From positions 95,092-159,091 of IMG/VR virus record IMGVR_UViG_3300027374_000478: a stretch of 64,000 nt of DNA. One strand, given 5' to 3'. Made by a program: the position numbers and the translations under genes. Shown here piece by piece: positions 2,267 through 20,663 of the stretch. Numbering within the stretch: the stretch's first letter is position 1; each line of letters begins with the position of its first letter. A model generated the notes under the pieces. The model was given only the letters and a program-made list of their open reading frames with translations. It made no database searches and was not told the DNA's origin. Origin of the DNA: a virus (Duplodnaviria; Caudoviricetes).

Positions 2267-3037
2267 ATGTGTAATTTTAAAAGTGGAATTATTTTGAAGA
2301 ACAGGGTTGTTTTAGCACCAGAAGGAAATGAAAGTCATTTGGATTTGTTAGAGAGTCTTGGGATTGAGGATACTCACATGAATGCATCTAAAACATTTGT
2401 AAGAGCAGAGTTAATTCCTAAAAATAATGATAAAATGACCAATGTAAAAGACTGGAGATATAAGGTCGATCAGGATATTGTACCTGATTGGTACGAAAGA
2501 GACCCAGAGAGATATGAGCAGGATTTTAGAAATGCAGTTGAAGAATATATGAATGAGTGGAGAAAACAGTTCAAATTCATTTGCGGGCATTATTGGACAA
2601 GTGTACAGGATGGAGATTGTACATATTACTTCATGAATGGAATTCTTAAAAAGTCAGAGTTTGGTAAAACAAATAATTATGTAGAATCTTATGTACGAAA
2701 TGATCTTATTAATAGTGAATTGTCTGAGGATTTAAAGAAAGAATTTGGAGATAAACTTGTTCCGATTTCTCTTGATTTGACTTCTATGGATGGATTTAAA
2801 GATTATGGAAGTGTTGAAGGTGATATTTTAGCAATCCCAAATATTCAGTTGCTTATGAAGTTTGGTGAAAGTATTCCATTGATTGATAATTGGTATTGGC
2901 TTGCTAATCCTAATCAGACACCGAAGAGAAACGATGCCCGCTATGTTCGGTACGTTATCTCCGATGGCGATGTGCGCTGCGGCGATTGCGGCTGGAATGA
3001 CTGGGGCGTGCGTCCGTTTTTCATCCTTCAATCTTAA
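2267..3037 (+). CDS. DGR target protein with C-terminal C-type-lectin-like (DUF6273-like) variable domain
   Basis: WYWL..P..YVRYV..GVRPFFIL C-terminus; 3' end carries the VR that matches the TR. Confidence 0.9.
   Translation: MCNFKSGIILKNRVVLAPEGNESHLDLLESLGIEDTHMNASKTFVRAELIPKNNDKMTNVKDWRYKVDQDIVPDWYERDPERYEQDFRNAVEEYMNEWRKQFKFICGHYWTSVQDGDCTYYFMNGILKKSEFGKTNNYVESYVRNDLINSELSEDLKKEFGDKLVPISLDLTSMDGFKDYGSVEGDILAIPNIQLLMKFGESIPLIDNWYWLANPNQTPKRNDARYVRYVISDGDVRCGDCGWNDWGVRPFFILQS
2936..3018 (+). repeat. DGR variable repeat (VR) with GC-rich IMH end
   Basis: 83-bp ungapped match to 3529-3611; 16 mismatches, all opposite TR adenines. Confidence 0.97.
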
Positions 3038-3058
3038 ATCTTTGAATCTTGCAAAAAA

Positions 3059-3111
3059 TCATCGGGTAGCCAGTAATCAGGAATGCGTCAGCATCCCGTA
3101 GGCAGCCGATG
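3059..3111 (+). other. GC-rich stem-loop downstream of VR (candidate DGR target-recognition hairpin)
   Basis: tcatcgg..ccgatga outer stem with inner ggaatgc/gcatccc hairpin; position matches known DGR hairpins. Confidence 0.6.
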
Positions 3112-3138
3112 AGCGACTGAAAGGAGCGGGGAAAACCA

Positions 3139-3507
3139 GTGAGCGAAGCGAAACTGGATGTTATTGTAAAAGCAATAAATCTTATGGAATATACTATGAC
3201 AATTACATCAAACCGAAAGAGGTATTCAGTTAAGCATTTAACATTGGTAAAACGCATCCAAAATCGCTGTATGGATATATATGAATATTTGCTTGATGCA
3301 AATAGGCTGAAATTGGATACTTCAAAATCGGAACGCCAAGAATTACAAACAAAAGCAATTTCATGTTGTGATAAGTTGTCTTGTTATGTGGAACTTTCTA
3401 TGAAATTGAAATTAATTGGAAGTGATACAGTAGGATATTGGCAGAAACAAATAAATGATGTGAAATATATGAGTATTGCATGGCGTTCAAAAGATAAAGA
3501 GAGATAA
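3139..3507 (+). CDS. avd: DGR accessory variability determinant (four-helix bundle)
   Basis: 122-aa helical protein between VR and TR; C-terminal YWQKQI..VKYMSIAW pattern. Confidence 0.85.
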   Translation: MSEAKLDVIVKAINLMEYTMTITSNRKRYSVKHLTLVKRIQNRCMDIYEYLLDANRLKLDTSKSERQELQTKAISCCDKLSCYVELSMKLKLIGSDTVGYWQKQINDVKYMSIAWRSKDKER

Positions 3508-3528
3508 TTTTAGGTTGTTTGTTGTATG

Positions 3529-3611
3529 ACCCACTATGTTCAGTACGTTAACTCCAATGGCAATGTGAACTACAACGATTGCAACTGGAATGACAAAGGC
3601 GTGCGTCCGTT
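3529..3611 (+). ncRNA. DGR template repeat (TR)
   Basis: AAC/AAT-rich copy of the VR lying between avd and RT. Confidence 0.95.
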
Positions 3612-3730
3612 CTGGATCGGAAGACGAATGAAAGTAAGAGAAACACTGAAATTAGAGTCCCGATATCAAAAGAATAAATAACCTTTCCTGATTCAAAAAT
3701 GTCAGGATAAATACAAAGGAACAAAATACT

Positions 3731-4774
3731 ATGATAGAAGATAAAACAGATTTTGAAAAAGTAGTAGATTTCGGTAATTTATATCAAGCATATTTAAAAT
3801 CTAAATCAGGTAAAGGTTTTTCAAAAAGCAGTCAAAAATTCCAAGTATTAGCTCTTGATGGAATTCATCAAATAAAGAGAAGATTAGAAACTAAAACATA
3901 TCAAGTATCAAAATACAATGAATTTATAATATATGAACCGAAAGAGAGAGTCATTAAAGCATGTTCGTTTGTAGATAAAATTGTACAGCATAGTTTGTGT
4001 GATAATGTACTGATTCCAAGATTGAATAAAGAGTTTATTCAAACAAATTATGCTGGACAGATTGGCAAAGGTACATTGTATGGATTGGATTGCTTAAAAG
4101 CTCAGATGTATCTTGCATATCAGAAGTATGGATATGATTGTTGGATTATAAAAGCTGATGTTAGCAAGTTCTTTTACAATATCAATCACGATATTTTGAA
4201 GGATATTTTGAAATATTTTATAGAAAATAAAGAAGTGTATTGGCTGTGTGAGAAGTTTATTGATAGTACTGAGGGAGTAGGACTTCCATTAGGTAATCAG
4301 GTTAGTCAAGTATTTGCACTTTTATATTTATCAGTGTTAGATCACTTTATCACAGGAGAACTTGGAGTTAAATATTATGGTAGATATATGGATGATTTTT
4401 ATTTGATAGTACAAAATAAAGAATATGCGAAATGGTGTTTAGCAGCTATTTATGAGTTTGTGTATTCATTAGGTCTTGAATTAAACAGTAAGACTCAGGT
4501 CATTCCTTTTAAAAATGGAATCAAATTTTGTGGTTTTCATACATATGTGACTTCAGGTGGTAAAGTAATCCGAAAGCTGAAGAACGAAAATAAACGTGCC
4601 GCTAAAAAGAAATTTAAGAAAATGGTTGGATTAGTGAGGTGTGGAAAACTTAGCAAAGAGAAATTTTATGAGAGTTACAATGCTTGGAAAAATCATATAT
4701 CACATGGCAATTGTGTGAAATTTGGATATGAGATGGATAGATATATAGAAAAATTATTTATAGGAGAAAAATGA
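3731..4774 (+). CDS. DGR reverse transcriptase
   Basis: GLPLGNQVSQ (DGR-type SQ), YGRYMDD, KADVSKFF, FCG motifs; next to TR. Confidence 0.95.
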   Translation: MIEDKTDFEKVVDFGNLYQAYLKSKSGKGFSKSSQKFQVLALDGIHQIKRRLETKTYQVSKYNEFIIYEPKERVIKACSFVDKIVQHSLCDNVLIPRLNKEFIQTNYAGQIGKGTLYGLDCLKAQMYLAYQKYGYDCWIIKADVSKFFYNINHDILKDILKYFIENKEVYWLCEKFIDSTEGVGLPLGNQVSQVFALLYLSVLDHFITGELGVKYYGRYMDDFYLIVQNKEYAKWCLAAIYEFVYSLGLELNSKTQVIPFKNGIKFCGFHTYVTSGGKVIRKLKNENKRAAKKKFKKMVGLVRCGKLSKEKFYESYNAWKNHISHGNCVKFGYEMDRYIEKLFIGEK

Positions 4775-7990: not shown

Positions 7991-9379
7991 TTGGAAAGTA
8001 ATAATAAAAGATTTAGTTTATCAAAAAATTGGAAACTGGTAAATTTCTGTGAGTTTGATAAGTATGCGACTAAAAGCTATTGTGCAATTCACAGAGTAGA
8101 TGAGAATTTAAACCTTGGTGATATTACTGAGGTTGATGGAACAAAATTAGAAGATTTTAATATGATTTGTGGAGGGAGTCCTTGTCAGGATTTCAGCGTA
8201 GCTGGTAAACAAAAGGGTTCTGTGTGGACTTGTAATGGTTGTGGACATGAATATAACCCTCTAACGGTACATTGGAGTCAGAGAGATAAATGTCCTAATT
8301 GTGGAAGTAATAATATTGAAAAAACAAGATCGTCACTTCTTGTTGAGTATTTGAGAGTAATCCGAGGAAATAAACCTAATTTTGGAATGTATGAAAATGT
8401 TAAAAATATTGTGGGTAAACAATTCAGAGATACTACATTCAAATTATTTGAAGATGAGTTACATGAGTATGGCTACAATACATATTGGAAAGTGCTGAAC
8501 GCAAAAGATTATGGTATTCCTCAAAACAGAGAGCGAGTATATCTGATCTTTATCAAGAAAGACTTAGACAACGGTAAGTTTGTGTTCCCTAGAGAATTTG
8601 ATAATGGAATTCGTTTGAAAGATGTTTTGGAAGATGAGGTAGATGAAAAATATTATATTTTTGATGATAAAGTGCAGAGATTTTTAACAAATCTAAATAC
8701 TAATACTTCTTTACTATATGATCCGTGTCAGGTAAAAAGAGAGGGTAAATCAAGGGAATATAATGATTACTGTCCAACTCTCACTTCAAGAGACTATAAA
8801 GATCCCAGATTGGTAAATGAAAATGTAGTAAAACAAGTCGGAAATATTTCTGATTGCAATGGGAATTGGAAGAATCCACAAGTGGGGAGAATTTATGATC
8901 CCGATGGTTGTTCACCGACATTAAATACTTGTGGCGGAGGTAGCCATGAACCTAAGATTGTTCAGGTTGGTAATGTAAATCCATCTGGTAAAGGTATGAA
9001 TGGTAATGTATTTTCAGAAGATGGACTAGCACCAACTTTAACAACAAATAAAGGTGAAGGAAATAAAATTTTAACAGGTATTAGAATCCGCAAACTAACG
9101 CCAAAAGAAACTTTCAGGCTTATGGGATTTTCTGATTCGGCATATGACGCTGCAAGCAAAGTTGTTAGCAACAGCCAGCTTTATAAACAATCAGGGAATT
9201 CAATAGTAGTAGATGTTTTATATTACATATTAGTTGAGTTATATAAGGCAATGCCGTACCTATTTGATGATTTAAAACTGAGCAGTTTCTTCTCAGGTAT
9301 TGGTGCATTTGAGGCTAGTTTGGACAGATTGTATGAAAGCATTAATACTGGAAATTTTACCAAACCACAAGCGGAGTAA
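7991..9379 (+). CDS. Circularly permuted C5 cytosine DNA methyltransferase with Zn-ribbon insertion
   Basis: GGSPCQDFS (IV), ENV (VI), PQNRERVY (VIII), RKLTPKE (IX), YKQSGNS (X), then motif I FFSGIGAFE at the C-terminus. Confidence 0.9.
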   Translation: MESNNKRFSLSKNWKLVNFCEFDKYATKSYCAIHRVDENLNLGDITEVDGTKLEDFNMICGGSPCQDFSVAGKQKGSVWTCNGCGHEYNPLTVHWSQRDKCPNCGSNNIEKTRSSLLVEYLRVIRGNKPNFGMYENVKNIVGKQFRDTTFKLFEDELHEYGYNTYWKVLNAKDYGIPQNRERVYLIFIKKDLDNGKFVFPREFDNGIRLKDVLEDEVDEKYYIFDDKVQRFLTNLNTNTSLLYDPCQVKREGKSREYNDYCPTLTSRDYKDPRLVNENVVKQVGNISDCNGNWKNPQVGRIYDPDGCSPTLNTCGGGSHEPKIVQVGNVNPSGKGMNGNVFSEDGLAPTLTTNKGEGNKILTGIRIRKLTPKETFRLMGFSDSAYDAASKVVSNSQLYKQSGNSIVVDVLYYILVELYKAMPYLFDDLKLSSFFSGIGAFEASLDRLYESINTGNFTKPQAE

Positions 9380-9392
9380 ATTCTGCTTGTGG
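9352..9392 (+). promoter_or_regulatory. Candidate programmed -1 ribosomal frameshift signal
   Basis: In-frame A_AAT_TTT heptamer 9352-9358, 6-nt spacer, 12-bp hairpin 9365-9392; -1 frame open to 9951. Confidence 0.75.
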
Positions 9393-9951
9393 CGAAGAAG
9401 TAATATGTATTGATGATACACAAGGTTTTGATGGTGCTAGATTTTACAAAGATTATGTTCCAACATTGCGAAGTCAAAGAAGCGGATTAAAAGTTGCTTG
9501 TATTAAAGATAAAGAATATTTAGATATTTGTATCAACGATAGAGGAAAGGTAAATAAAAAACCACAGATAACATATGGGCATTCGCCAACACTTATTTCT
9601 GAATTTCATGGGAATTTACCAAAAGTTGTTGAGGTAAGAGGTGCCGCTATGCGTGGTAGGTACAATTCAGATGGAAAAACAGAACAGAAAATAGAAGTAA
9701 GAGATGATGAGTTGTCTAATGCAATTACAACTGTACAGAAAGACTCGTTAATTGTAGAAAATAAGTCTTGGTTCGAAAAGAAATATACAGAGTTTTATGA
9801 GAAATATGGTTATATTCCAGAATATTTTGTTCCATATAACGGAACTGAATGTAAAGATTATGCATCGACTTTAACTGCAAATTCTAATACAAGTCCAACA
9901 CATTCTGGGACGATTTTAATTATGGAGATTGGCAAAGAAAAGAAGTCTTAA
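9358..9951 (+). CDS. -1 frame extension of the C5 MTase (target-recognition-like repeats)
   Basis: Repeated PTL/STL/AITT segments like the MTase variable region; no own RBS. Confidence 0.7.
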   Translation, partial: YQTTSGVNSACGEEVICIDDTQGFDGARFYKDYVPTLRSQRSGLKVACIKDKEYLDICINDRGKVNKKPQITYGHSPTLISEFHGNLPKVVEVRGAAMRGRYNSDGKTEQKIEVRDDELSNAITTVQKDSLIVENKSWFEKKYTEFYEKYGYIPEYFVPYNGTECKDYASTLTANSNTSPTHSGTILIMEIGKEKKS

Positions 9952-9971
9952 AACCCACGTTTCAAAGGAAG

Positions 9972-10670
9972 GTGATTAATATAAATATTGAGCATAATTG
10001 GATAGAAACATTTATAACAGAAAGTAAGAAAAAAGAATTAGAAATAAGAAGGAAAATTGATAAACAAAAAACAATCATGAAAACAATTACTAATGAAGAA
10101 TCTAGCGTTGTGGATGATTTTTGCATGACTTTACAAAGACGTTCTTCGAGTTGGGGTGATTTTATTGTAAGTTTGGATAAAGTAAATGAAGCATTATTAG
10201 CTGGAATACCATTAAGAGAAATAATTTATAACTATTTAGAAAATAAAAAATGTTCAAGTTATGGAGGAGAGAATATGATGGATCATTATGTCGGAGCATT
10301 TAATACAGAAATGTTACCAATTGAAAAAATTTTAACATGTAGAGAGAAAGATATTAGAATTGTAGATGTAAATCTAATTGTGCCAGACAAGGTTGTAGAA
10401 GTTACATTTGCAGATGGAACAAAAGAGAAATCTGTATGTAGAGAACCTGATACATTCAGTTTGGAATCTGCAATTTCTATCTGTATTTCCAAGAAGATTA
10501 TGGGTGGATCATCTGCTTATAATAATGCGATTAGACGTGGTATGAAGGTCTATGAGAAGAAGTTAGAGTATGCAAAGAATAACACAAATCTTCCAGATAA
10601 TCCAGACTACAAGCGGATCAATGAATTTGTAGCAAGTGTGAATGAGAGAGTTGTGAAAGGAGAAGTATGA
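9972..10670 (+). CDS. hypothetical, probably chimeric protein
   Basis: 232-aa ORF with an internal GGAGGAG RBS/ATG near 10275. Confidence 0.6.
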   Translation: MININIEHNWIETFITESKKKELEIRRKIDKQKTIMKTITNEESSVVDDFCMTLQRRSSSWGDFIVSLDKVNEALLAGIPLREIIYNYLENKKCSSYGGENMMDHYVGAFNTEMLPIEKILTCREKDIRIVDVNLIVPDKVVEVTFADGTKEKSVCREPDTFSLESAISICISKKIMGGSSAYNNAIRRGMKVYEKKLEYAKNNTNLPDNPDYKRINEFVASVNERVVKGEV

Positions 10671-11380
10671 AGAGACAGATTAGAAGAAATGTTTTTGAAA
10701 CAAATTCGAGTTCTATGCATAGTTTAACAGTTATGAAGAGAGATGATAAATATACTCCAGAAGAATTTTTAGACGGAATATATTTATGTAAAGACGAAGA
10801 TACAGGCGAGGAATCTTGTGTTTGGGAGCCTTGGGATCACGATTTGGAATTTGGTAGGAGTCCATTTAGGGCTTTGGGAACATTTACAGATAAATGGTTG
10901 TATGCGTGTGCTTCGTTGGTTCATGACTATAATGATGATGTTTATAAAGAACTCGTTGCACTTGCATTGAAATATATACCAGGTCTTAAAAAGATCAAAC
11001 TGCCAATGGACAGTGATAGTATTGCAGATAAAAATGATGAAGAACATAAAAACGATGACTATTATCAGAAGTATGGTAAGACAGAAGATGAACTAAAAGA
11101 ATATTTATCACAGAAAGAAAAGGATTGGGGTTTTGAACTTGAGTATTGGAAATCTTCAAATGGCTGGTGGCATTATGACAAACCATGTACAGGATATGTT
11201 GATGAAGATATTCTAAGTGGATTTTTAGAGCATGAAGGTATTTCTCTTGAAGAATATCTTATAAATAAGAAATATGTCGTCATTCAAGACGGTGATGAAT
11301 ATTGCTATTGGGACAATATGAAGCAAACAGGGCTAGTAAATATGGATATGATTGATCATGAATATCCAAGAGAGGATTAA
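10667..11380 (+). CDS. FETNSSS-motif protein 1
   Basis: N-terminus MKRQIRRNVFETNSSSMHSL. Confidence 0.85.
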   Translation: MKRQIRRNVFETNSSSMHSLTVMKRDDKYTPEEFLDGIYLCKDEDTGEESCVWEPWDHDLEFGRSPFRALGTFTDKWLYACASLVHDYNDDVYKELVALALKYIPGLKKIKLPMDSDSIADKNDEEHKNDDYYQKYGKTEDELKEYLSQKEKDWGFELEYWKSSNGWWHYDKPCTGYVDEDILSGFLEHEGISLEEYLINKKYVVIQDGDEYCYWDNMKQTGLVNMDMIDHEYPRED

Positions 11381-11387
11381 GGGATCA

Positions 11388-11834
11388 ATGAAAAGGAAGA
11401 TTAGAAAAGGTGTATTTGAAACAAATTCGTCTTCGGTTCACAGTTTGGTTATTTCTAATGAGGGCAGGGAACCGAGTGAATTCAAACTGAATAAGGATGG
11501 AGAAATAGAAATTGATTTTGGACAGTTTGGAAAAGACAAACGTATTTATACATCACAATATGACAAACTTTCCTATCTGATTACTTGTTTATATTATCTG
11601 TCAGGATATGATATATCTGATATTTATGACAAGTGGGAATTTAGAGAAATTCAGGATGCTATTTGTAAATATACAGGTGCGACAGGAATTAAGATTTTAG
11701 GAGAACAGGAACCAGAGATTGATCATCAGTCGCAGCCCTATGGCAATATTGAAATTGTCAATGTTTATGATGAGGATGCGGTTATCAATTTTGTATTCAA
11801 TAAGTATGTGTCATTAAAAACAGATTGTGATTAA
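11388..11834 (+). CDS. FETNSSS-motif protein 2
   Basis: N-terminus MKRKIRKGVFETNSSSVHSL. Confidence 0.85.
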   Translation: MKRKIRKGVFETNSSSVHSLVISNEGREPSEFKLNKDGEIEIDFGQFGKDKRIYTSQYDKLSYLITCLYYLSGYDISDIYDKWEFREIQDAICKYTGATGIKILGEQEPEIDHQSQPYGNIEIVNVYDEDAVINFVFNKYVSLKTDCD

Positions 11835-11850
11835 GGAGGAAGTTTATTTT

Positions 11851-12222
11851 ATGAAGAGGGAAGTAAGACGTGGAGTATTCGAGACAAATAGTAGTTCAGT
11901 ACATAGTTTAACAATGTGTTCTGGAGAAGAGTACAAAAAGTGGGAGAACGGCGAAGTATTATATTGGGAAGAGGAAAATAAATTTGGAACCAAAGAAGAA
12001 ATCATTGAAGAAATGAAAAAAATGAAGTGGCATGATGGAACACCACGATATGAAAAGGTTAATTGGGAAAATGAGGATACAGTAGATGATATTTTTTCAG
12101 ATGAAGGAATCAAAACTTGTGAAAAATATTTTGAAAATGATTGGTATGAGACATATGAGAAAAAGTATACCACTCAAAACGGTGAAGAAGTTGTAGCATT
12201 TGGATATTACGGTCACGATTAA
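11851..12222 (+). CDS. FETNSSS-motif protein 3
   Basis: N-terminus MKREVRRGVFETNSSSVHSL; AAGGAGG RBS. Confidence 0.85.
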   Translation: MKREVRRGVFETNSSSVHSLTMCSGEEYKKWENGEVLYWEEENKFGTKEEIIEEMKKMKWHDGTPRYEKVNWENEDTVDDIFSDEGIKTCEKYFENDWYETYEKKYTTQNGEEVVAFGYYGHD

Positions 12223-12228
12223 GAAAGG

Positions 12229-13131
12229 ATGGTAGAAATGAATCTGTTGGGAATTTATAAGAATGGGAATTTTACCACTAAGTTATTCTCAGATGGAACC
12301 AAGATTAGAGAAACAGAAGATGATGAGTTTATCCCTGATTTTGCAGAGAATATGGATATCAAGATAAGTAATTATTGTGATATGGGATGTAATTTCTGTC
12401 ATGAGGGTAGCACAAAGAATGGTAAACATGGAGATATTCTGAACCAGAAGTTTATTGAAACTTTACATCCGTATCAGGAGGTTGCGCTTGGTGGTGGTGA
12501 TGCAACGAGCCATCCAGATCTGATTCCATTTTTACATAAGCTGAAGGATAGGAAAGCCGTTGTAAATATGACCGTAAACCAGCGACACTTTGAACAGAAA
12601 CAGGAATTGATTAAGAAGTTGGTTGATGAAAAACTAATATATGGTCTTGGTGTATCTCTTGTAAATCCAACAGATGAATTTATATCACTAATTCAGCAAT
12701 ATCCAAATGCAGTTATACATGTGATTAACGGTATTCTCAAGCCTTCAGACGTAGAAATGTTATTTGATAAGAATTTGAAGATGCTTATCCTTGGATATAA
12801 GCAGTTAAGGCGTGGTGGTGAATGGTATAGTGAGGATCACGAAAATATCATTATTAAGCAAATGTGGCTGAAAGAAAATCTTGGTGGAATCATTGAGCGT
12901 TTCAAAGTAGTGAGTTTCGATAATCTGGCTATTGATCAGCTTGAAGTTAAGAGATTAATGAGCCAGGAAGAGGGGGATGAGTTTTACATGGGGGATGATG
13001 GCAGCATGACATATTATATTGATATGGTTGAACAGAAATTTGCAAGAAGTTCTACTGCCGATTTTGATAAGAGATATGATTTATTGGACTCTGTAGATGA
13101 AATGTTCAAAAAGATAGTATCTGAACAATAA
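12229..13131 (+). CDS. radical SAM protein
   Basis: CDMGCNFC (CxxxCxxC), ALGGGD. Confidence 0.9.
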   Translation: MVEMNLLGIYKNGNFTTKLFSDGTKIRETEDDEFIPDFAENMDIKISNYCDMGCNFCHEGSTKNGKHGDILNQKFIETLHPYQEVALGGGDATSHPDLIPFLHKLKDRKAVVNMTVNQRHFEQKQELIKKLVDEKLIYGLGVSLVNPTDEFISLIQQYPNAVIHVINGILKPSDVEMLFDKNLKMLILGYKQLRRGGEWYSEDHENIIIKQMWLKENLGGIIERFKVVSFDNLAIDQLEVKRLMSQEEGDEFYMGDDGSMTYYIDMVEQKFARSSTADFDKRYDLLDSVDEMFKKIVSEQ

Positions 13132-13135
13132 AAAT

Positions 13136-13183
13136 ATACCATATATAGTGTTCGGTTGGATGAATGGTTGCTATATATGGTAT
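13136..13183. promoter_or_regulatory. tandem NrdR-box-like pair 1
   Basis: ATACCATATATAGTGT (13136) and TTGCTATATATGGTAT (13168), 32 bp apart. Confidence 0.6.
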
Positions 13184-13225
13184 AGAAATGAAATCGAGAT
13201 TTTAAGGCAGAAAAAGAGGTGATAG

Positions 13226-14347
13226 ATAACGAGAGTTTACAAAGAGAAACAGTTCTTAATATTTGATTTTGAAGATGGAAGGACTGTCAAATATGATTTT
13301 GCCACAAAAACTTGTATAGGGATCAAAGGTAAACCAGTAAAAGGATTGCAGAGCCAATTATCAGGCATAACAATGAATCAGATAATTGAGTATTGTGCTG
13401 ATGAAAAATATGCTAAATTTCTCAAATTTGTACAGAATAGATACCCAAATTACATATCAAATATAGGTACAATTCTTTCAAAAGTTCCACAGTATTCAAA
13501 ATTTGAACAGATATTTTCAGCAGGATTCGATAGTATTGTAGATAGAAATTTTACAAAAACAATCAATGATATTCCAAAATCTTTAATCAAAATAGCGAGA
13601 GATAGACAAATAAAAATATCAGATAGATTTTGTGATTATTGGAAAAGAAATCCTGATGCTCATTTTCTGGCGTATCAGCTTGATTATATATCTTTAACAG
13701 ATGAAGACATCAATAAAATTTTAATGAGAGAAAGTTATGATTATGTTGATGGGATTAGTAATTACTTTTCCTATTTTAATAAGTTGATTGAAGAATATGG
13801 ATATAATCCGAAAGCATTGTTGCTGTATCTTGACACTCTAAAAACTTTTGAAGCAATAGAAGATATGCGTCATTTACTTGGTGAATTGGTAGATTATGCA
13901 AGAATGATGAATACGATCAGTCCAAAATTTGATAAATATCCACGGAATTTTCTTACTACACATAAGATTGCATGTAGAAATTATAATAGATTAAAGAAAG
14001 AATTTTCTGAGGAGATATTTAAGACAAGAATAAATAAGAATTTGGAATGTATATTTGGGGATTATCAGTTTATTTATCCTGATAGCACACAAGAAATTAA
14101 AGATGAGGCAGTAGCACAAAATAACTGTGTGGCTTCTTACATAGATAAAGTTATTGATGGAGAATGTCATATTATGTTCTTGCGTAAGAAATCTAATCCT
14201 AAAGAGAGTCTTGTCACTATTGAGATACGAAACAATCATATTGTACAAGCCAGAAGAAGATTTAACGATCCTGTAACATCAGAAGACCAAGAAGCAATTG
14301 ATAAATGGAATAAAAAATTTGCAGATAAAGAAAGGAAAACAGCATGA
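13226..14347 (+). CDS. PcfJ-domain protein (ATA start)
   Basis: EA..QNNCVASY..IMFLRK..LVTIEIR..QAR motif; frame opens at ATA 13226 after GAGGTG. Confidence 0.8.
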   Translation: MTRVYKEKQFLIFDFEDGRTVKYDFATKTCIGIKGKPVKGLQSQLSGITMNQIIEYCADEKYAKFLKFVQNRYPNYISNIGTILSKVPQYSKFEQIFSAGFDSIVDRNFTKTINDIPKSLIKIARDRQIKISDRFCDYWKRNPDAHFLAYQLDYISLTDEDINKILMRESYDYVDGISNYFSYFNKLIEEYGYNPKALLLYLDTLKTFEAIEDMRHLLGELVDYARMMNTISPKFDKYPRNFLTTHKIACRNYNRLKKEFSEEIFKTRINKNLECIFGDYQFIYPDSTQEIKDEAVAQNNCVASYIDKVIDGECHIMFLRKKSNPKESLVTIEIRNNHIVQARRRFNDPVTSEDQEAIDKWNKKFADKERKTA

Positions 14348-14778
14348 TTACAAAAGGAAATGAGATTAGGCTGATTAAGCCGATGGGAGTATTTGATAAT
14401 ATCGGAGAAGTTTGCGAAGTGACAGATGTATCAGAAGATGGCGTTATCAGTTTTAAATTTGGTGGCTGTCATCTTGGGTGTATGTCTTATAACGAATTTG
14501 AAAAGTATTTTGAATTAGTAGAGAAGGAAGTATCAGAAGAAGAAAGTGATGAAGATGCTGATTCTATGGCAGAAAATAAAGAAGTGTATGACTTAATTGA
14601 GTGGTGTAAAGAGAATGATAAACCATTTTATCTAAAGCTATATTTAAATGTACTGGAAAAGAGAAATGGTATTACACAGTCAATTCTTGGAATGTATAAA
14701 AATAGGTTATGTTTGGTGCAGTTTAAGAATAAAACTTTCAAGGATTCAGATTTTAGTGGATTAAAAATTATGCTTTAA
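14344..14778 (+). CDS. hypothetical, possibly truncated/chimeric protein
   Basis: ORF runs through weak sites 14725/14740 into the end of the retron RT. Confidence 0.55.
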   Translation: MITKGNEIRLIKPMGVFDNIGEVCEVTDVSEDGVISFKFGGCHLGCMSYNEFEKYFELVEKEVSEEESDEDADSMAENKEVYDLIEWCKENDKPFYLKLYLNVLEKRNGITQSILGMYKNRLCLVQFKNKTFKDSDFSGLKIML

Positions 14779-15739
14779 TAGTAGCATTGCGAACATGATT
14801 ATAAATATTACTGAATTTTGTTGGTTCAGTTTGTTGTGCGGCCACTATTAAACCCTGAAGTCTCTTTTGAGAGTGTTCGTCATTTGGATTATTCTTATAA
14901 TTACGCAATTCATTCATTACTTTATGGCTTAATGAGTTAGGAATATTGAGGTTCCCATTAGGAGAAATGATAGTTCCAGTAACAGATTTTGGATAAGTAT
15001 TTGTATAGTATTTTACTTTTGATCTTGAAAGCCTATATAAATATTTAGAAATAATATTATAAATTATTTCTTTGTGCTTGTGTGAAATTTCGTGTTGTGA
15101 AGAAAAGGTAATATCATCTACATATATAGACATAATTATCTCATTTTTATCACAAAAATTTTGTAGTTCATCAAACATATTATGATTCGCTAAATAAGAT
15201 AGAATTTGACTTGCAGGAGAACCGGAAATTAAATGATTTGTAGTTTTTATTCCCTTAGATAAAAGGAATTGCTCAATAGGTTCTGATTCCTGAATATCAC
15301 ATAAAGTTAAGTCAATAGTAACAAAATTAGTGAGAATATTGGCTATATCAGAAGGTGTTTTTAAATCAACTTTAAAAAAATTATACACTGTTTCACGAGT
15401 TATACATGGGAAAAATGCTGTTAAATCTATTTTAAAAAGAAAATTGCAGTTTTGGTGTATAGCAGCATTATCAACATAAGATTTTCCTTTTATACCAGAG
15501 AATGCATTTGAAGGAACTTCTATTTTATTTAATTCGCATTTTATGTTTTTCTGAATTTTTTTAAGAGAATCCGAAGGAGCTTCAATTAAACGAGGTTTTG
15601 GATTTGCTTGTATATATGGATTAATCTGCTTTGCAACAAAATTTTGATTTAGATATTCTTTTGTAGGAACTTTTAAAAGTATCATTAAATATTTTTTGGT
15701 GGATAATTTATACAAATTTGATTTTGTTGGATCTATCAT
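14768..15739 (-). CDS. retron-type reverse transcriptase
   Basis: NAAIH (region X NAxxH), KIDLTAFFP, SGSPASQ, YVDD, SVTG (region Y VTG). Confidence 0.9.
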   Translation of the reverse strand: MIDPTKSNLYKLSTKKYLMILLKVPTKEYLNQNFVAKQINPYIQANPKPRLIEAPSDSLKKIQKNIKCELNKIEVPSNAFSGIKGKSYVDNAAIHQNCNFLFKIDLTAFFPCITRETVYNFFKVDLKTPSDIANILTNFVTIDLTLCDIQESEPIEQFLLSKGIKTTNHLISGSPASQILSYLANHNMFDELQNFCDKNEIIMSIYVDDITFSSQHEISHKHKEIIYNIISKYLYRLSRSKVKYYTNTYPKSVTGTIISPNGNLNIPNSLSHKVMNELRNYKNNPNDEHSQKRLQGLIVAAQQTEPTKFSNIYNHVRNATIKA

Positions 15740-15771
15740 AAATAACCTCAATATTCAAATAAATGCTGGTG

Positions 15772-17620: not shown

Positions 17621-17675
17621 AAAGGAATAAAGGTGCTGCTGCCGTGAGATGATCATACCTTTCTGGGTGAAGAAA
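17621..17675 (+). promoter_or_regulatory. Palindrome-containing leader element C
   Basis: AAAGGA, then AAAGGT/ACCTTT stem enclosing ATGATCAT. Confidence 0.5.
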
Positions 17676-18394
17676 ATAAAATACGTTGGAAGTAAAAACA
17701 GAATAAGCAAGTATATTGTACCTATTATTCAAAAGTGTATTGACGAAAATAATATAAAAATATATTATGAGCCGTTTGTTGGTGGGGCCAATATGATTGA
17801 CAAGATTAAATGTGAAAATCGTATTGGTAATGATATACATAAAGAATTGATTGCAATGTGGAATGAAATTCAGAATGGTTGGGAAATACCATTGCATATT
17901 TCAGAAGAAGAATATAATAAAGTTAGAAATAGTAAAAAAGATTATCCAGATTATTATGTAGGTCTTATAGGGTTTAATGCAACTTTTGGGTCTAAATATT
18001 TTGGTGGGTATGCAAGAGGATTTAAAGCAGACAAAGTTACACCAAGAGACATCCCAAATGAAGCATTAAGAAACTTATCAGAACAAATTCCCAATATACA
18101 AAATATTAAATTTTTATGTAGCGATTATAGAAACAATGAGTATGCTAATTTACGGGATGCAGTTATTTATTGTGATCCTCCGTATCAAGGTACAACTAAA
18201 TATGCTACAGATTCATTTGATTATGATATGTTTTGGGATTGGTGTAGAAAAATGAGTAAAGAAAATTGGCTTTTGTTAGTGAATATAATGCTCCTTCGGA
18301 TTTTGAATGTATTTGGTGCAAAAATGTTACCACAAGTTTAAAAGTTCATGAACATGAAAGCAGAGTAGAGAAATTATTCACATATAAGAAATAG
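17676..18394 (+). pseudogene. D12-class N6-adenine methyltransferase, frameshifted near 18270
   Basis: KYVGSK, EPFVGG, YCDPPY; C-terminal VSEYNAP..EKLF lies in another frame. Confidence 0.8.
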
Positions 18395-18589: not shown

Positions 18590-19633
18590 TTGCAAGGAAA
18601 AGATAAAAATATAAATTCAAAATCTGCTGATCTGATGGAGTTAATCAGTAATGCTCCACAAAATCAAACAATAGGAGATAATTTAGTAAGAGCGTGGTCA
18701 AAGATAAACAACGATAAATACAAGAAAATTGTATGTGCTTTATCTGGCGGATCAGACAGTGATGTAATGGCAGATATTATTTGGCAATGTGATAAAGATG
18801 GTAAGGTAGAATATGTTTGGTTTGATACTGGTTTAGAATATCAGGCTACAAAAAACCATCTGAACTTGTTAAGAGAGAAGTATAATATAGAAATTAAACC
18901 ATATAAAGCAATCGTTCCTATCCCTACAAGTTGTAAAAAATATGGACAACCATTTGTTTCAAAAAATGCTTCTGAAATGATTGATAGATTACAATGTCAT
19001 GGATTCCAATGGGAAGATGAACCATTAGACATATTATTGCAAAGATATTGTGAATGGAATACAAAGAAACAAGATTGGGTTGGATGTAAAGGTGCGTTAA
19101 TGTGGTGGTGTAATGCAAATGAATCAGTCCAATTTAATATTGCATATAACAAATATCTAAAGGAGTTCATGATTCAAAATCCTCCAAAGTTCAAAATTTC
19201 TTCAAAGTGTTGTAAATATGCAAAGAAAGATGTATTACATAAGCTTGTTGCAAATGAAGGATATGATTTAAATGTATTTGGGGTTAGAAGGGCTGAAGGA
19301 GGTATTAGGCAAACAGCATATAAATCCTGTTTTGATGAAAATGGAGAAGGCTATGATAATTACAGACCTTTGTTTTGGTACACAAATTCAGACAAAGAAG
19401 ATTATGAAAACCATTATGGAATTGTACATAGTAAGTGTTATACGGAATATGGGTTAGAGAGAACGGGTTGTGCTGGTTGCCCATTTGGAAGAGATTTTGA
19501 GCAGGAGTTGGAAGTTATAGAGAAGTATGAACCAAAGCTATTTGTTGCTGTGAATAATATTTTTGGTGACAGTTATGAGTACACAAGAAAGTATAGAGAA
19601 TTCTGTAAGGAGATGGACGAGAAGAAAAAATAA
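18590..19633 (+). CDS. PAPS reductase family protein
   Basis: SGGSDS, FDTGLEY, CC..AKK, GVRRAEG, RTGCAGCPF motifs. Confidence 0.85.
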   Translation: MQGKDKNINSKSADLMELISNAPQNQTIGDNLVRAWSKINNDKYKKIVCALSGGSDSDVMADIIWQCDKDGKVEYVWFDTGLEYQATKNHLNLLREKYNIEIKPYKAIVPIPTSCKKYGQPFVSKNASEMIDRLQCHGFQWEDEPLDILLQRYCEWNTKKQDWVGCKGALMWWCNANESVQFNIAYNKYLKEFMIQNPPKFKISSKCCKYAKKDVLHKLVANEGYDLNVFGVRRAEGGIRQTAYKSCFDENGEGYDNYRPLFWYTNSDKEDYENHYGIVHSKCYTEYGLERTGCAGCPFGRDFEQELEVIEKYEPKLFVAVNNIFGDSYEYTRKYREFCKEMDEKKK

Positions 19634-19781: not shown

Positions 19782-20663
19782 ATGGAATATCAAAAGAAAA
19801 TCAAATGTGAATTATATAGGGACTCTATGCAGAATTATAAGAAGTATGCAATTCCACCTGCTCAGTTAATTATTGCAGATGTTCCATATAATGTAGGAAA
19901 TAATTTTTACGGTTCAAATCCGATGTGGTACAACGGAGGAGACAACAAAAAAGGTGAAAGTAAATTAGCTGGTAAAGCAGCTTTCAATTCTGATTTTAAT
20001 TTTAATCTATATGAATATTTTCATTTTTGTTCCAAGATGCTTAAAAAAGATGATACTAGACCTGTTCCGAGAGGACGCAGTAGTGACTCACCTTGTATGA
20101 TTGTATTCTGTTCTTTTGAACAGATTCAGACACTTATTAAGGCGGCAGAAAGGCATGGGTTCATTCATTACATACCACTAATCTTTTGCAAGAATTATAG
20201 TCCACAGGTACTCAAAGCTAACATGAGGGTTGTGGGAGCTGCTGAATACGCACTCCTATTATATAGAGATAAATTGCCAAAATTCAGAAATGGTCTTCAA
20301 GTTGATGAAAATGGTAAGAACATTCCAGGAACAGGACATATGATCTTTAACTGGTTTGATGGTGGAGATGAGGATGAGTGGGGAAGAACTTATCATAGCA
20401 ACAGTACATATATGATGTGGGAAAAAGATAAGTCTAAGGAAGTTCCCAAAATCCATCCGGCTCAGAAGCCAGTAGCAGTTCTGAAACGTTTGATTGAGAT
20501 ATTTACTGATCCTGGTGATGTGGTTATTGATCCATGTGCAGGTTCTGGTACAACACTAAGAGCAGCTTATGAACTTGGCAGAAGTGCTTTCGGTTTTGAA
20601 ATTGACCGTAATTTCTACCAGAGAGCAAAAGATGAAATGTTGAATTTTGCAAAAGAAGAGTAG
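19782..20663 (+). CDS. N4/N6 (beta-class) DNA methyltransferase
   Basis: ADVPY, HPAQKP, DPCAGSGTT, GFEID motifs. Confidence 0.9.
   Translation: MEYQKKIKCELYRDSMQNYKKYAIPPAQLIIADVPYNVGNNFYGSNPMWYNGGDNKKGESKLAGKAAFNSDFNFNLYEYFHFCSKMLKKDDTRPVPRGRSSDSPCMIVFCSFEQIQTLIKAAERHGFIHYIPLIFCKNYSPQVLKANMRVVGAAEYALLLYRDKLPKFRNGLQVDENGKNIPGTGHMIFNWFDGGDEDEWGRTYHSNSTYMMWEKDKSKEVPKIHPAQKPVAVLKRLIEIFTDPGDVVIDPCAGSGTTLRAAYELGRSAFGFEIDRNFYQRAKDEMLNFAKEE

Follow-up and report, generated by a model that had tools for sequence, protein, structure and literature searches.

A widespread phage module of proteins sharing an N-terminal FETNSSS tag and a single-cluster radical SAM enzyme

To our knowledge, only few client classes are known for the maturation of whole proteins by radical S-adenosylmethionine (SAM) enzymes, such as sulfatases, glycyl-radical enzymes and quinohemoprotein amine dehydrogenase. 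Among the sulfatase systems, a single anaerobic sulfatase-maturating enzyme (anSME or AtsB) acts on whole folded clients carrying a short Ser motif near the N-terminus. The radical SAM maturases of peptides that are synthesized ribosomally and modified after translation (RiPPs), such as SuiB with SuiA (streptide), SkfB, CteB and PqqE, are encoded adjacent to their substrates and have a sheet at the N-terminus, in front of the barrel; the PqqD-like RiPP recognition element, which binds the leader, comprises around 85 residues arranged in three strands and three helices (winged helix-turn-helix). Here, we analysed a window of 64,000 nucleotides (positions 95,092 to 159,091) of the 159-kb provirus record IMGVR_UViG_3300027374_000478, i.e. 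part of a large gut-bacterial prophage. At 10667-13131 on the + strand it carries four closely packed genes, of which the first three encode proteins with a common N-terminal peptide, hereafter referred to as the tag, and the fourth encodes a radical SAM enzyme. Our data support a functional link between the tag and the enzyme. This module is real, widespread and uncharacterised in phages, and we found no description of a FETNSSS-radical SAM module in the literature searched. It would add another, very common client class to those listed above, with clients belonging to no Pfam or NCBIfam family.

Conservation of the tag and its linkage to the enzyme

More than 460 viral contigs, with sizes up to 673 kb, bear the tag. 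Of 82 tag loci, 72 have a radical SAM gene at most 6 kb away, which is usually the adjacent one; among the loci without a neighbouring enzyme, three are cut by contig ends, and all five that were tested encode the enzyme at another place of their phage record. In the opposite direction, a tagged gene was found within 8 kb of the enzyme gene in all 80 close enzyme loci and in 77 of 80 divergent ones (29-68% identity). The sequence-only reading made before this analysis had stated that tagged proteins usually lacking a radical SAM neighbour would speak against it, and the counts in both directions show the reverse. The common gene order is one or more genes of a body family designated type A, followed by one of type B and the radical SAM gene; in divergent enzyme loci, type A was present in 72/76, often as the sole tagged gene. 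No further recurring gene was found beside the module among the 82 related loci. A natural fusion of a type A protein with the radical SAM enzyme was also identified (P0264, 486 aa), the enzyme half of which is 44% identical to the enzyme of the window.

Carriers of the module include the Microcystis phages Ma-LMM01 and MaMV-DC as well as the Prevotella Lak megaphages. A search of 185,579 prokaryote species genomes with a narrow pattern returned only 25 loci, mainly in metagenome-assembled genomes of Firmicutes, and the module is mostly viral. With a profile of the three tags and the type A proteins resembling the 148-aa protein of the window, 3,625 representative clusters at 50% identity were retrieved at E ≤0.001, while around 7,400 of 8,000 candidates scored as relatives of the enzyme.

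The conservation of the tag was assessed in 146 representatives found by hidden Markov model and not by pattern. Its consensus consists of a basic leader, M-K-R/K-x-I-R-x-x, followed by the core F-E-T-N-S-S-S-x-H-S, and the tag begins 9-10 residues from Met1 in 129 of the representatives. S14, S15 and H18 are each present in 146/146, R6 and E11 each in 145/146, and Ala replaces N13 in six and S16 in nine of the 146; an invariant Gly was not found among them. When type A and type B tags were compared at their variable positions, identity was higher within the same phage than between different phages (0.494 vs 0.414), a difference reached by none of 2000 permutations, and the DNA of the two tags of one phage differs in 48% of the shared codons. 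This within-phage likeness would fit a co-adaptation of the tags to one enzyme.

In the window, the tagged proteins share the start M-K-R-x-(I/V)-R-x-x-V-F-E-T-N-S-S-S-x-H-S-L and comprise a long form of type A (10667-11380, + strand, 237 aa, pI 4.6, tag at residues 1-20, N-terminus MKRQIRRNVFETNSSSMHSL), a core form of type A (11388-11834, + strand, 148 aa, pI 4.8, N-terminus MKRKIRKGVFETNSSSVHSL) and a type B protein (11851-12222, + strand, 123 aa, pI 4.7, N-terminus MKREVRRGVFETNSSSVHSL, C-terminal end FGYYGHD). They are followed by the radical SAM gene (12229-13131, + strand), whose start is probably the ATG at 12238, i.e. the fourth codon, giving 297 aa as in database homologues. Each module gene is preceded by a Shine-Dalgarno sequence of its own. 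The first decapeptide of each tagged protein is basic, while the whole proteins are acidic. Thus far, the open reading frames (ORFs), strand coordinates and isoelectric points bear out the sequence-only reading, which had described three tandem genes for acidic tagged proteins next to a CX3CX2C radical SAM gene. Its remark that all of them end in Asp holds for the three window proteins but not across their relatives, which mostly terminate in N, D, H or G (e.g. KGN, DNH or GHD).

ETNSS occurs only three times in the six frames of the whole window, once per tagged gene. By DNA alignment, the three tag-coding segments form a family of direct repeats (D1; 10667-10726, 11388-11447 and 11851-11910, all on the + strand) with 68-78% identity. 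Since the differences include synonymous sites, among them TCN/AGY serine switches, the tag is conserved as a peptide, on which selection acts, and not via recent duplication of the DNA. Over the region compared, the window sequence encoding the tags shares 99% identity with a contig of Eubacterium plexicaudatum ASF492. The 3' end of the module is marked by a possible terminator or regulatory hairpin at 13136-13184, immediately behind the stop codon of the radical SAM gene, i.e. a perfect inverted repeat of 13 bp (ATACCATATATAG ... CTATATATGGTAT) whose loop is 23 nt long.

Expression data are available for the cultured phage Ma-LMM01, in which, according to our gene map, gp130 is a type A gene and gp128 the enzyme gene. 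In published RNA-seq data, gp130, gp129 and gp128 were all assigned to the middle genes of class B5 with near-equal levels, and within gp130-gp128 a middle promoter was reported upstream of gp130 only (PMC5780444 Table S3). The homologous module is thus co-expressed as a unit while the phage infects a cultured host. In the Microcystis phages, a 267-aa gene labelled 'histidyl tRNA synthetase' (L002:3971-4771, gp131 of Ma-LMM01) lies immediately upstream of the tagged gene; in no other phage was it observed beside the module.

Enzyme, tagged proteins and genomic surroundings

The enzyme carries the motif C50-x3-C54-x2-C57 for a single [4Fe-4S] cluster and matches PF04055 (30.2 bits vs a cut-off of 29.5) and phrog_16999, annotated as 'Fe-S oxidoreductase' (E 4.4e-44, enzyme residues 34-294 on profile positions 5-286 of 288). 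The cluster Cys residues are kept in 42-43 of 43 relatives and are the only three Cys of the window enzyme; no further conserved Cys column was found among these relatives, position 61 being Cys in about half of them. Because only the three cluster Cys are conserved, the enzyme has neither a SPASM/twitch domain, nor an auxiliary cluster, nor a thiol hydrogen donor.

The AlphaFold2 (AF2) model of the enzyme (predicted local distance difference test, pLDDT, 94.9) shows a three-stranded N-terminal sheet followed by a partial TIM barrel; ahead of the barrel there are the strands 6-12, 15-20 and 25-29 and nothing more, and SuiB and SkfB align from residues 5-6 onwards. More than 40 solved radical SAM structures were matched with Z-scores of 10-18. 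SuiB was the nearest (Z 18.0, root mean square deviation 4.0, 278 residues aligned, including the N-terminal domain), followed by SkfB (17.4), EpeE (16.3), viperin (16.0), PqqE (14.6) and anSME (14.2), and at lower values MoaA (13.9), CteB (13.8) and the pyruvate formate-lyase activating enzyme PFL-AE (11.1). Judged from this model, the closest folds are those of peptide maturases. A profile search of PDB with the enzyme alignment gave marginal matches only, and the NrdG-type models of NCBIfam stayed below threshold (NrdG2, 22.2 bits vs a cut-off of 131).

A complex was predicted from the alignments of the enzyme and the 148-aa protein together with 4Fe-4S and SAM, alongside three controls. 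The median ipSAE was 0.77, compared with 0.02 for the best of the three controls, an ipSAE mark attained by 58 of 80 solved complexes and by 2 of 110 mismatched pairs, although this calibration is only rough because custom alignments were used and ligands included. The docking runs share at least 67% of their contacts, with a pLDDT of at least 77 for the partner, and the interface of the 148-aa protein is formed exclusively by residues 1-23. In the prediction, tag residues 2-10 pair with enzyme residues 20-34, with 25-29 as the edge strand and the acidic ETEDDE facing the basic KRKIRK, while the rest of the tag touches barrel residues 84, 86, 113-115, 138-141, 160-164, 184-188, 227-233, 251-263 and 274-276. 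The contacts of the tag core include the family invariants E84, A86, N113, T115, G139, G141, H164, D231, N232 and S275. The docking of the motif into the active site, which the sequence-only reading had proposed as a check, thus placed residues 1-23 in the barrel, and this result supports binding of the tag to the enzyme at the level of the model.

With the tag removed, the bodies of 212 distinct tagged proteins, collected at 107 related loci, were clustered, and 196 of them fell into two families, type A (126) and type B (70). The window proteins of 237 aa and 148 aa belong to the BLAST-linked type A family, the 123-aa protein to type B. The bodies of the 237-aa and the 148-aa protein showed no direct BLAST match to each other; the tag-free profiles of the two subfamilies aligned with a hhalign probability of 91.7% (E 8e-7, 66 columns), which identifies the two, by profile comparison, as remote homologues. 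The earlier description of the three proteins as otherwise unrelated therefore stands for the 123-aa protein with its separate body family but not for the other two. A homology between type A and type B bodies was not accepted, as hhalign aligned only a 14-column FGxFGxD hairpin with a probability of 3.7%. Type A proteins conserve a hairpin (GEFG), a helix (K-x-x-Y), a D-H pair and a final Asn/Asp, seen in the 148-aa protein as the GEFG hairpin, the KLSYL helix, IDHQS and the C-terminal Asp, and their invariant polar residues K60, Y63, D112 and H113 are enzyme-like. The bodies are acidic throughout, the median pI being 4.4 in type A and 4.3 in type B.

None of the three window proteins had a sequence match in Pfam, NCBIfam or PDB. 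The 148-aa protein matched phrog_28997, to which no function is assigned (E 5.9e-8), the match of the 123-aa protein to the same family was confined to the tag (E 0.0036), and the 237-aa protein did not match it. In the AF2 model of the 148-aa protein (pLDDT 89.5 overall), the body exceeds 90 and tag residues 1-20 lie at 49-62, so that the model depicts the tag as a flexible tail in the free protein. No known fold was recognized for this model in PDB with Foldseek (best E 0.69) or in a wide structure search (best Z 2.8), which does not make the fold new; BFVD returned uncharacterised family members only, and a Protein Atlas feature search with the tagged proteins returned their own viral clusters only. 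Among 126 representative clients, 125 lacked a Pfam domain, and neither a sulfatase nor an alkaline-phosphatase family was matched. The sole positive client (L214:8894-9679) carries a C-terminal Tad2-like domain (PF11195, the family of the anti-Thoeris sponges; 30.5 bits vs a cut-off of 25), and a viral cluster of the ESM Atlas with 62 members, 97% of them Tad2-like, matches the type A fold at a template modelling (TM) score of 0.61; the three window proteins have no Pfam match to PF11195. Considering the Tad2-like fusions in some relatives, the system may bear on phage-host conflict. In two further loci (L007 and L009), the first tagged gene, a long type A form, starts with MGCFESNSSS or MNCFESNSSS and lacks the basic leader, which its locus neighbours keep; therefore, the leader may be dispensable for some clients.

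The module is surrounded in the window by a C5 methyltransferase gene with a zinc-ribbon insert (7991-9379), a D12 Dam-like methyltransferase gene (17649-18341), an N6_N4 methyltransferase gene (19782-20663) and a gene resembling 3'-phosphoadenosine-5'-phosphosulfate (PAPS) reductases (18590-19633), which together form an anti-restriction-type region. Just before its stop codon, the C5 methyltransferase ORF shows by eye a second FSGIGAFE-like motif, and the next ORF (9466-9951) has no Pfam match; the region 9330-9951 may represent a split or degenerate second methyltransferase. The following 232-aa gene (9972-10670) overlaps with its stop codon the start of the first tagged gene (ATGA), and its product weakly matches phrog_388, 'nucleotidyltransferase' (0.002). 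While it is translationally coupled to the module here, it was rejected as a module member, being present in only 7 of 82 related loci, and a cassette spanning 9949-13189, as first proposed, is hence not a conserved unit. Downstream, a PcfJ-like protein is encoded at 13346-14347 (PF14284, 2e-20; phrog_9653, 2e-87), likewise not conserved with the module, followed by a reverse transcriptase gene on the - strand (14768-15751; RVT_1, 2e-15). Another reverse transcriptase (3731-4774; RVT_1, 3e-15) belongs to a diversity-generating retroelement at 2267-4774, with a target gene (2267-3037), a variable repeat (2937-3025) and a template repeat (3530-3618), the repeats being 80% identical with differences at template adenines.

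Proposed maturation of the tag and alternative explanations

On balance, we regard the four genes as a probable phage enzyme-plus-client module for protein maturation, in which the enzyme would bind the tag and modify it covalently. The leader would be added as an extra beta-strand to the enzyme's own three-stranded N-terminal sheet, while the tag core would be threaded into the barrel beside SAM and the Fe-S cluster, where the 5'-deoxyadenosyl radical would take a hydrogen from the core and cause a covalent change. Ser14 or Ser15 would be the most likely site, favoured for hydrogen abstraction because of their conservation in all tags, and a carbonyl, a crosslink to H18 or backbone cleavage, among others, are conceivable products. 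Once matured, the clients would act mid-infection; type A would be the constant client, type B and rarer bodies accessory ones. Binding in vivo, the covalent change, the residue hit and the role of the clients are inferred. The phage modification system suggested by the sequence-only reading is thereby backed in its link between tag and enzyme, through the genomic linkage and the docking, but not in its three unrelated clients, two of which are of type A and one of type B. Since the enzyme has one cluster and around 297 aa, its reaction is likely new or a stripped-down version of known chemistry.

It is tempting to go further and to speculate, with about even chances of being right, that a minimal single-cluster enzyme installs a radical-derived modification on the invariant Ser-rich tag of whole folded proteins, thereby making a protein-derived cofactor or warhead which would serve large phages in the infection of gut Firmicutes, Prevotella (Lak megaphages) and cyanobacteria, possibly against host defence. 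For the clients, a role in host take-over or anti-defence is only a lead, based on their acidity, the anti-restriction-type surroundings and the Tad2-like fusions.

Several points weigh against a maturation of the tag. The chemistry is a prediction, and the docking score is the model's own confidence. With a single cluster and no conserved Cys, the enzyme lacks the usual equipment for generating formylglycine (auxiliary clusters) or for epimerisation (a thiol hydrogen donor). The similarity of tags within one phage could also come from shared ancestry instead of co-adaptation to the enzyme. Furthermore, the conserved type A body, with its enzyme-like polar invariants K60, Y63, D112 and H113 and its nearly constant presence, also fits an obligate subunit. 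The main rival builds on this last point, i.e. that the tagged proteins serve the enzyme as subunits or specificity factors, whose invariant tail inserts into the barrel and completes the active site of a complex acting on a small molecule or nucleic acid, with the bodies (A, B and others) setting the targets. Type A as a near-constant and often only tagged partner, its conserved polar residues, as expected of an enzyme or binding protein, the predicted contacts of the tail with invariant barrel residues, the similarly near fold of viperin-like nucleotide enzymes and the location among DNA methyltransferase genes all agree with it. However, the simplest view of a strictly invariant Ser-rich peptide inside a radical SAM barrel is that of a substrate, the same tail is found on several unrelated bodies, no nucleotide or DNA-modification gene is conserved beside the module, and we know of no radical SAM enzyme that borrows active-site residues from the tail of a partner. 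We therefore regard this explanation as a serious but clearly less likely one.

The invariant E, S, S and H look like a catalytic constellation, and together with the D-H pair and the C-terminal Asp/Asn of type A they could suggest that the tag is the clients' own catalytic or self-processing motif, e.g. for Ser autocleavage to a pyruvoyl or N-terminal nucleophile (Ntn) enzyme, the radical SAM enzyme serving another step of the pathway. This seems improbable given that the tag is unpacked against the body in the monomer model, that the identical tag is carried by non-homologous bodies, that it is the tag and not the body which docks into the enzyme, and that no pyruvoyl or Ntn family was matched by the sequence or fold searches. 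The predicted docking of the tag is leader-like, by beta-strand pairing, and the nearest enzyme folds are RiPP maturases; this could point to a RiPP-like pathway, with release of the modified N-terminal 20-mer as the active product and with bodies that are mere carriers. As selection acts on the bodies, which form conserved families with invariant residues, the module contains no conserved protease or exporter gene, and the product would be near-invariant over hundreds of phages, unlike RiPP cores, we consider such a pathway quite improbable. A short N-terminus common to otherwise different phage proteins is also the hallmark of the capsid-targeting sequences of T4 internal proteins, so that the tag could be a sorting signal and its radical SAM neighbour incidental. 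Such a signal is hardly credible in the light of the two-way linkage with the enzyme over very different phages, the type A-enzyme fusion protein, the predicted docking and the middle-class, not late-class, expression in Ma-LMM01. A maturation of the tag is our preferred explanation, and it is amenable to testing, as the module consists of four small genes and is carried by the cultured phage Ma-LMM01.

Comparison with known radical SAM systems

Some further readings of the motif, i.e. PP-loop, SGNH, 2H-phosphoesterase, intein-like and N-glycosylation sequon, received no support from the tools used, and the tag lies outside the monomer fold. An involvement in DNA hypermodification was likewise rejected: the radical SAM isomerase gp53 of phage M6 resembles SPL and is accompanied by a kinase and a transferase (PMC8989533), features that are absent from the module. 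A different system was also described by Kaur et al. 2020, in which rSAM/SPASM genes are associated with C-terminal FxSxx peptides in vWA-MoxR systems (PMC7159879).

The glycyl-radical activases (PflA and NrdG) resemble the module enzyme as small single-cluster enzymes acting on a peptide loop of a folded protein. In contrast to the N-terminal tag, however, their clients present a C-terminal RVxG loop, and because the tag lacks an invariant Gly and the NCBIfam scores are below threshold, the enzyme is not a glycyl-radical activase. The epimerases EpeE/YydG and PoyD act on C-alpha hydrogens of the peptide backbone, and EpeE is among the nearest folds, but its hydrogen donor C223 (according to the PDB entry title) has no conserved counterpart in the module enzyme, which is not a Cys-dependent epimerase.

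With anSME and AtsB, the module shares the use of one radical SAM enzyme of related fold for whole folded clients with a Ser motif near the N-terminus. The analogy drawn in the sequence-only reading nevertheless fails in the defining features, as anSME requires two auxiliary clusters in its SPASM domain, for which the module enzyme lacks the Cys residues, and its clients carry C/S-x-P/A-x-R and not FETNSSSxHS. As neither the motif nor the fold of the clients fits, with no sulfatase family matched, this is not an anSME system.

As in the RiPP maturases, an N-terminal sheet precedes the barrel, enzyme and substrate genes are adjacent, and the predicted substrate binding involves beta-strand addition of the leader with the core in the barrel. 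Differences lie in the lack of a SPASM/twitch domain and of an auxiliary cluster, because of which the module enzyme is not a member of the SPASM/twitch group, and in its N-terminal element, which in the model is a three-stranded sheet of around 30 residues and appears not to be a full PqqD-like recognition element. Moreover, the presumed substrates are not short peptides but folded members of conserved protein families, 90-300 aa long, and the tag is invariant instead of hypervariable. The module stands closest to the RiPP radical SAM maturases in fold and docking mode, and closest to the anSME-sulfatase systems in its logic.

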